The notes under the pieces were generated by a model, which saw only the letters and a program-made list of their open reading frames with translations, did no database searches and had not been told where the DNA came from. A stretch of DNA of 64,000 nucleotides from Camelus ferus (Eukaryota): assembly GCF_009834535.1 (NCBI RefSeq), contig NC_045696.1, forward strand, positions 84,074,001 through 84,138,000, read 5' to 3'. This document shows, one piece after another, positions 59,301 to 62,300 of the stretch (within the stretch, counting starts at the first letter, position 1; every line of letters begins with the position of its first letter). Both the position numbers and the translations under genes were made by a program.

Positions 59301-62300
59301 GAGAAGAGATGTGGGAAACAGAAACCTAGAAGGACTTGATTTGCTTGAGCATCAACATACTCACTAATATGTAAGTACGTTAAGAATGATGAATAGTTTT
59401 TCAGTATTTGTAATGTGCTAGGCACTATTCTAAGTGCTTTCATTCTACACAACAACCCTATGACATATAAAAGTTATTAACCCGGTTTTATAGGTGAGGA
59501 ACTTGTGGCATCAAGTGCAGTTAGGTAACTTGCTCCAGGTTACACAGCCAGTAGGCGATAGCGCCAGGACTCAAACTCTAGCTATTTAATTACAAAACCT
59601 TTATCCTGAATGCTTTATTACTATAAAATAAAAAAAAGAGATATAATAATGAGTTCTATCACACTTACTGAACAGGTATTCAGTGAAGATTCTAAATTCT
59701 AAAGTTGAATAAAAACCTAGTAATTATTATCCATCCATTCATGTCTCCAAAAATATGGAGACCACTTACGAAGTGTCAGATTCCGTGTAAAGTATTAGGT
59801 TAGTAACTTCTTCTACTTGCTGTTGCTCGTATTGTCTGTCTAACTTTCTGGCAATTTATGTTCTCTGTCCCGGCTCATATAGGGAGCTATGATGGAGAAA
59901 TTGTTCTGTGGAACAGTAGCACAGAAAATGCTCACTATGTCCTTCACCCTGATTACCAGTGGCTGCCTAAAATCAAAACCGGGTGAGTGCAAGTTTGAAA
60001 CTAGAATAACGTGGCCGAGTCCAGCCACAACAGGCCAGGCTGTTTGTGCTTGCTCCTGGTGTCAGCTTGCTCCCAAATTATAGGTGATCGGCTGCGAGCA
60101 CACGGGAGCAGTGGTACCGCTGTCTTGTCAAAGTGACTAAAGGGAACCTTGAGATTTACTCGGCTTAGCAAATTCTCCACGGCTTGCTGTTCCTTCTTTT
60201 TAAGCAACGTCAGCGTTTCTGAATTACTGACGGCAGGGAGCAGGCCTCTGATTTTTATCTAGTTCACTTTTTTGCCAATAAACCTCGCCAAATTGCCTTT
60301 GAGTGAACCTTGGGTACTCCTTGGTAGGAAAATAGGAGCTCGTGTTCACTTGATAGGCTGCTCAGACTCCATCTAAGCTTGTATTAAATATCATGCTGCC
60401 TGGAAATCTTAAATTATTTCTTGCTTTAGAAGCCTGTGAGGAACATTAGATGGGGGTATATTGTATTTTATGGGAGTTTAGCAGAACAGATAAATATTTT
60501 ATACTTAAGCAAAATGTCTTGACAATTGCCTTTCACATTTTATTTTAGCTTCCTTAGATACTACAGGCTTTTCCTTAGACTAATTTATTTGGGGTAATGA
60601 ATATGTCACTCCTCATGGCCCAGTGAGGTTCTGTTGTCTCAATTGGATGAACTCACAGGGGCTGAATTAGACCTTAGGAAAGGACTGGTCATCAGAGACA
60701 GCTTTTGTGTGTGTGAGTGATTTGTTAGGAGAAAGAAAACTCACTTAAGAGATTTAGAGTTTACTTGGCTGCAGGCACAAAAGTGACCGGCTTTATATAC
60801 AAAGAGCTAATCATTAGGGTTCATCTGAACCCTCCACGGAGAGGGTAGAATTCTGCCTCTTTCTCTGCGCTGGCCCTCTAGAAAGCACTGTGTTGCTCTT
60901 AGAGCAAACCTAATTGTGGGTATGATTAAAACCGCAGAGAGATAGATAGGAAAGAAAAGCAGATAATGTCAAATTTAGAAAAGACACAAGAGGCATTGCT
61001 CTGAAATTTTGAAGATTCCTCTGTATAGATTTTTCACAACTATGTGCAGACTACTTATGGATTCTGAGATGAATATCCCCAGTTTTTATTAGTGTGACCT
61101 GGAGACGACATGATTAGATTTGTACAGTTAGGAATATCATTTCTAGGGTAACTCACTAGCAAATAATATTGCTTTAAAACGATCACTCACATATGTTAAA
61201 TAGTCATTATATCTCATATTCATTAAGTTACTTGCAAGCTTAATTTTAATGATTAATAAGTTGAAAATGCCATGACACTAGACTCACATTTGTCTTGAAC
61301 ATATCAGGATCTCTCAGATGTTAGCAGTGACTCCAAAATGAAGTCCCTATTAATTCAGATCAAGGGAAAACACAGTAAGCGTGTTTGGAATATGAGGAAC
61401 AAAAATGGAACCAAATAATCCTTCAAGTTGGGGTTGGCGGAGTGAACAGCAGAAAGCTCTGTGGATGTTGACTGGAAACCTACTGTGAGACTTGCTGGAG
61501 TCACTGGAGGCCGTGATGGAGGCAGGGCCTGTTGTTTTCCACAAGTGTTTGTTTGAAAGGCAGAAGCTTCTGTTCATTAAGATACCTGGCTTTCTCTCCA
61601 TCTCAGATACAGAGCCACAGAAGCTTCTTGGTGCTGGAAGGAGCCACTCCACCCACCCCATGGCAGACCAAACCACCCTGGGAGCCTGTTCCTTTGAGAG
61701 GGATGCTGAGTGCAATCATGCTGTTATGACGCTTTGCTTCCTTGAAGCAAGAGAAAACATCGCAGCGACAGGTAAAATATATATATTTATATTCTGACTG
61801 TAGACTGCTTTGATATACTATAAAATGTTGGAACAGGGAACAATAAAGAAAGTTCAGTCTAATCCTATCAAGGTCTCGTAGAGTTTGACTGCGTCTAGCG
61901 AATAGTCAGTACTAGGTCACGGGAGGCCGCAGACCAAGGTGCATGAGGTTAGGGTTTAGGAGGCTGGCCAAGGAGCAGGAGCCAGACCAGACCCACCAGC
62001 AATTTATACAGTGCTGTGTCTGTCAGGATCAGAATGAGAAAAACTCAACAACAATCAGAGTTGGTGTTCTAGCCAGGGCATAAAGAGGTTTAGTAGGGTA
62101 GAGGACACACAAAAATTATGCTCCAAGCATATGAGCCAAAGCTTAGGTCTACATGGGGCAGAAGGATTGAGTCGAAAATAACCATGCTGGCACCTGTTAT
62201 CAAAATGGGCTAGGAAAAATAGTGAGAAACTTGGAGATTGGGGGCAGTTGTGAAATTTGAAATAACTGTTGATCCCAGGTCAAGAGAGCTACTGGCTCTT

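Follow-up and report, generated by a model that had tools for sequence, protein, structure and literature searches.

A one-base insertion in camel WDR49 as a candidate consensus error of the genome assembly

Two kinds of described case lie closest to a gene that is broken by one base in one genome assembly. In collapsed long-read assemblies, false frameshifts take the form of a single-base indel in an intact gene and recur across unrelated genes (PMC8445201 and PMC12007338), and such indel errors can arise from nearby allelic variants (PMC8445201). In people, loss-of-function variants of WDR49 have been called from patient sequencing and are reported to be enriched in familial ALS (PMC13252510, a preprint). 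The camel WDR49/CFAP337 locus shares with the assembly cases a gene that is otherwise complete and conserved, in an assembly whose coding exons carry scattered single-base insertions; it differs from them in that it was read from the assembly alone, and in that the nine control frameshifts are all insertions, four of them in CpG. With the human variants, provided that the camel base is real, it would share an early stop in WDR49, although that base comes from one assembled sequence. Outside the supplements of gene-loss screens, our literature search found no published account of WDR49 loss or of camel WDR49. We regard the extra base as most probably a consensus error of the assembly, one of the scattered insertions, in a gene that would be functional.

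Gene structure and predicted effect of the extra base

The window, a 64-kb stretch of DNA (C1:84074001-84138000 of the assembly), holds 11 exons of WDR49, all of them (11/11) with an AG acceptor and a GT donor, and with a summed length of 1768 nt (3n+1). Seven further exons, all intact, lie outside the window and complete a gene of 18 coding exons, 3142 nt long as against 3141 nt in alpaca. Together the 18 exons span alpaca residues 1-1046 in order and gap-free, with 32 differences over the 1046 residues. Every intron is GT-AG, and the extra base, in one of the 18 exons, is the only lesion, the other 17 being intact; when the break is bridged with an X, the model contains no other stop. The exon 11 region has a single match in the whole assembly and thus no second copy. 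The features in the window are as follows, in window coordinates.

5126..5302, + strand: coding exon 3, intact (spliced chain)
6157..6331, + strand: coding exon 4, intact (spliced chain)
15200..15367, + strand: coding exon 5, intact (spliced chain)
17727..17875, + strand: coding exon 6, intact (spliced chain)
28002..28235, + strand: coding exon 7, intact (100% identity to C. ferus and alpaca proteins)
45587..45751, + strand: coding exon 8, intact (spliced chain)
48865..48980, + strand: coding exon 9, intact (spliced chain)
57674..57804, + strand: coding exon 10, intact (spliced chain)
59883..59982, + strand: coding exon 11, of 100 nt in the assembly; by orthologue comparison 99 nt with phase 1 at both ends
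59965..59967, + strand: site of the extra base, GCC for expected GC, the exact base not being fixable (peptide comparison)
61607..61771, + strand: 165-nt coding exon 12; free of stops in the frame of the orthologues, off-frame as assembled
61695..61697, + strand: premature TGA in the sequence as assembled; 704 residues of the full-length model precede it
63752..63939, + strand: coding exon 13, intact (spliced chain)

A sequence-only reading of the window had assigned the gene to WDR49, had described 11 exons of 1768 nt with a 100-nt phase-1 exon among them, and had found the other ten exons sound. The colinear full-length match to alpaca CFAP337 and the rebuilt chain bear out each of these points and every coordinate given with them. 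That reading had also pointed to exons beyond the window as a place where further lesions might lie, and there are none. Within intron 7, at approximately 34300-39500 on the - strand, six-frame translation reveals broken-up coding pieces that look LINE-1-like.

A protein search with the exon at 28002-28235 returned 146 proteins among 167 candidates, and the figures given here derive from the 120 that were listed. Among these listed matches, 100% identity to the exon was found for a Camelus ferus protein (EPY81871.1, P0001) and for alpaca CFAP337 (XP_072826852.1, P0002). Together with the close agreement with P0001 and the 32 differences from alpaca, this marks the animal as an Old World camel. 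WD40 repeats, scored on the alpaca protein, match PF00400 at 104.5 bits (cut-off 27); an EF-hand is absent among the best 25 of 26 Pfam families on the same protein, and UniRef names several relatives EF-hand proteins. The real camel protein would have about 1046 residues, would consist mostly of WD40 repeats and would form part of the motile-cilium axoneme.

Exon 11 is in frame both in P0001, which reads DYQWLLKSKPG, and in the alpaca protein, which reads DYQWLLKSKSD. In the assembly it begins in phase 1 and, at 100 nt, shifts the frame. Omission of G59965, C59966 or C59967 returns 32/32 residues of the P0001 exon peptide, while omission of one A of 59969-59972 returns 31/32; the extra base is therefore best placed at 59965-59967. 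The sequence-only reading had offered either C59966/7 or an A of that run as the base to remove, and it is the first of these that stands. The two in-frame readings at the site, CTG and CTC, both encode Leu.

As assembled, the spliced frame ends at TGA 61695-61697, the next junction being 74 nt on and six junctions lying downstream, so that the protein would have 704 residues (669 native and 35 off-frame) and would lose the last 377 native residues. Nonsense-mediated decay is expected where a junction follows a stop by more than 50-55 nt; since six junctions follow, this stop lies well inside the range of the rule. The sequence-only reading had already described this frameshift and its stop and had predicted decay, and the spliced chain bears these points out.

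One-base insertions elsewhere in the assembly

The background of frameshifts was gauged by a control scan, in which the assembly was searched for fibronectin-III, cadherin and leucine-rich-repeat domains, with the best 150 of 728, 774 and 833 candidates scored respectively, and open-frame lengths were read. Large exons totalling ~340 kb contain nine other frameshifts, which lie in FAT4, in a LINGO1-like gene and in 5/29 protocadherin exons. The name FAT4 is a presumption that draws on a Pfam PF25374 match, and sequence and layout suggest the names titin, LINGO1 and protocadherin (alpha and gamma). All nine breaks are +1 insertions, with no deletion among them (P=0.002 for even odds). In seven of the nine the inserted base copies neither neighbour, in one it copies a neighbour and in one the comparison is ambiguous. 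These breaks, like the WDR49 base, are known from assembled sequence alone.

C2:88783951-88783952: FAT4 first large exon, one extra base; split ...IVLN/ISARDQ, frames of 600 and 1200 residues
C27:5413753-5413755: LINGO1-like single-exon frame, one extra base inside a CpG
C3:98326603, 98326641, 98333858, 98346302, 98371082, 98372218, 98720280: seven protocadherin +1 insertions

P0160, the closest Fat protein found (~70% identity), reads through the FAT4 break point, and because mice null for Fat4 die at birth (PMC5333361) a homozygous break is implausible; judged from the assembled sequence, the extra base is very likely an assembly error. Across 190 kb of the protocadherin clusters, a region chosen because short frames showed there, 5/29 variable exons carry seven indels, each of them +1 relative to the closest intact paralogues; the 16 frames of the remaining cluster were counted as open from the frame listing alone. 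The broken protocadherin exons would receive pseudogene annotation. Five large titin-like frames (5722, 2140, 1019, 731 and 622 residues; ~31 kb) contain no break, which indicates that the assembly is mostly accurate.

Two further loci were left out of the control count. A gene with leucine-rich repeats and a TIR domain (L037:247-2200, on C37), presumably of the Toll-like-receptor type and perhaps TLR13, carries several breaks and was dropped as a probable true pseudogene; a pair of short leucine-rich-repeat frames (138 and 121 residues) at C25:321958-322515 may be two exons or one split frame.

The break rate is 2 in ~231 kb of single-copy frames, a figure built on two events, and 9 in ~341 kb overall, a figure probably inflated by the paralogue clusters; both denominators are open-frame lengths, taken without an orthologue check, and hidden breaks would raise the rates. 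For a gene of the length of WDR49, the background chance of such a break is about 3-8%, so that one broken gene in a scan is to be expected. Extrapolated to the 35 Mb of coding sequence in a genome, the assembly would hold ~300 false coding frameshifts (37-1094).

The control set does not resemble germline mutation. In human genomes copy-number changes make up more than three quarters of indels, and among non-copy indels outside repeats deletions are 8.4-10.4 times as frequent as insertions (PMC3638132), whereas the breaks found here are all insertions and are mostly non-copy.

Consensus error or null allele at WDR49

The WDR49 base is of the same +1 type as the breaks elsewhere in the assembly, one of which lies in an essential gene, and it is absent from P0001 (a single record); it occurs in this assembly and in neither P0001 nor the alpaca protein. 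We infer that it is one of the scattered insertions. In one respect it stands apart, since it can be read as a plain duplication of C, as real mutations often can, whereas 7/9 controls differ in this.

Two origins for such an error may be considered: long reads may have left insertion errors in the consensus, or the two bases of a heterozygous site may have been written one after the other. Four of the nine controls fall in a CpG, compared with 6.4% of steps (P=0.002, a test chosen post hoc with a background from six of the seven genes), and this excess would be compatible with a heterozygous site written as both bases. A synonymous-pair test of side-by-side alleles was not significant (5/9 against a null of 0.47, P=0.42), and residual read insertion errors are therefore an equally good account. 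The accessible part of PMC5632298 has nothing on errors of this type.

The alternative that survives best is a private or low-frequency null allele, in which polymerase slippage duplicated the C, the assembled animal is most likely heterozygous and the consensus picked the mutant base. The mRNA would then encode 704 residues and, if it retains exon 11, would be degraded through nonsense-mediated decay. The change of C to CC at the site is a copy-number change, the commonest kind of real indel (PMC3638132), and the stop, 74 nt before a junction and with six junctions downstream, is what such an allele would carry. A young allele would leave the rest of the gene intact and unrelaxed, just as an error would, and people do carry loss-of-function variants of WDR49 (PMC13252510, preprint). 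Against this stands the size of the background. A haploid genome carries a few tens of real one-base frameshift insertions at most, which the ~300 false coding frameshifts (37-1094) of this assembly likely exceed; and the searches of camel records, though weak, gave none in which the extra base is present. In a rough weighing, a quarter of the ~300 false insertions would be of the copy type, or ~75, to be set against ~13 of ~15 real one-base insertions, which are mostly of the copy type; error and real change would then stand near 85 to 15. We consider the null allele improbable, and the consensus error the better account by a good measure.

This reverses the emphasis of the sequence-only reading, which had put a null allele or gene inactivation first and had listed a consensus error as an option. 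Inactivation is the less likely of the two because the record from the genus is in frame, because neither a second lesion nor relaxation is seen, and because the same +1 signature recurs in the assembly, FAT4 included.

If the base is an error, the assembly may hold some hundreds of false one-base coding insertions (37-1094), and apparent gene losses and other frameshift findings in it need read support before they are believed. Should the base be real, which we think unlikely, a population of Old World camels would carry a segregating null allele of WDR49, a motile-cilia gene that has been little studied, and the allele would add to the genetic load of a small population. Such an allele would allow a direct test of the ciliary-dyskinesia-like disease without male infertility that has been proposed to follow from WDR49 loss (PMC11779644), and likewise of the link to motor neuron disease claimed by the preprint (PMC13252510).

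Relatives, lineage loss and exon structure

P0001 is a gene prediction, partial and fused to a serpin domain. Over aligned blocks of 190, 200 and 32 residues (422) it is identical to the window model except at residue 613 and at the break, and because residue 613 differs from the window, P0001 speaks for another animal or haplotype. At this residue, in exon 10, the window and 11/11 outgroups have Ile while P0001 and alpaca have Val, a pattern of either reversion or old polymorphism.

The differences from alpaca were assigned to branches with 11 outgroups, which placed eight of them on the camel branch and 22 on that of alpaca and left two ambiguous; before and after the break position the changes number 3/5 in camel and 15/7 in alpaca. 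This comparison is one of amino-acid changes at the protein level and is blind to a very young loss.

These data bear on a unitary pseudogene, for which WDR49 would have been lost very recently and to fixation in a single camel species or lineage. The single copy of the exon in the assembly would suit such a loss, there being no compensating duplicate, and within Camelus the assembled animal could belong to another species than P0001. However, the exon is in frame in C. ferus P0001 and in alpaca P0002, so that neither record shares the lesion; no second lesion is present across the 18 exons or their splice sites; and the camel branch has fewer changes rather than more (8 vs 22), with no relaxation seen at the protein level, at which a very young loss would escape notice. 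We judge a fixed loss very improbable.

Least probable of all is a normal exon of 100 nt whose extra base is compensated at another splice site, a possibility that the sequence-only reading had raised with another acceptor in mind. AGs that would restore the frame do exist, at offsets of -47, +34 and +37 relative to the acceptor of exon 12 and of +4, +34 and +37 relative to that of exon 11, and the frame would also return if exon 11 alone were skipped, at a cost of 33 conserved residues. But the pyrimidine tracts at these AGs are poor, 59930-59990 contains no GT donor that would restore the frame, alpaca uses the annotated junction, and most of the listed relatives with the exon motif align through it without a gap. 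The exon 11 motif is present in 96 of the 120 listed relatives, and 93 of these 96 align gap-free over at least 26 of 30 residues. Among the 24 listed relatives that lack the motif, 10 continue past exon 10 with a variant form of exon 11 and in no case skip it; the other 14 matched neither motif and stand outside the skipping count.

Of 24 public sequencing runs listed, 20 contain the stretch or a part of it, the best share being 0.92; a share of this kind cannot place a single base and so weighs on neither side. Searches for further camel records yielded weak negatives. Protein searches with exon 11 (19 matches among 79 candidates; 7/7) gave nothing camel-like among the 15 proteins compared, the 15 of 30 members listed for the P0002 cluster include no other camel WDR49, and a 30-base pattern scan of metagenome contigs gave 0 matches; no camel record carrying the extra base was thus found in these protein, cluster and metagenome-contig searches.

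In the 90% cluster of alpaca P0002, 14 of the 15 listed members are ZBBX-type proteins, ruminant ZBBX among them, and the presence of ZBBX in a CFAP337 cluster looks like a clustering fault. SERPINI2, ZBBX and PDCD10 form a conserved set of neighbours of WDR49, and the serpin domain fused to P0001 and to other WDR49 models gives a hint, and only a hint, of the neighbour order.
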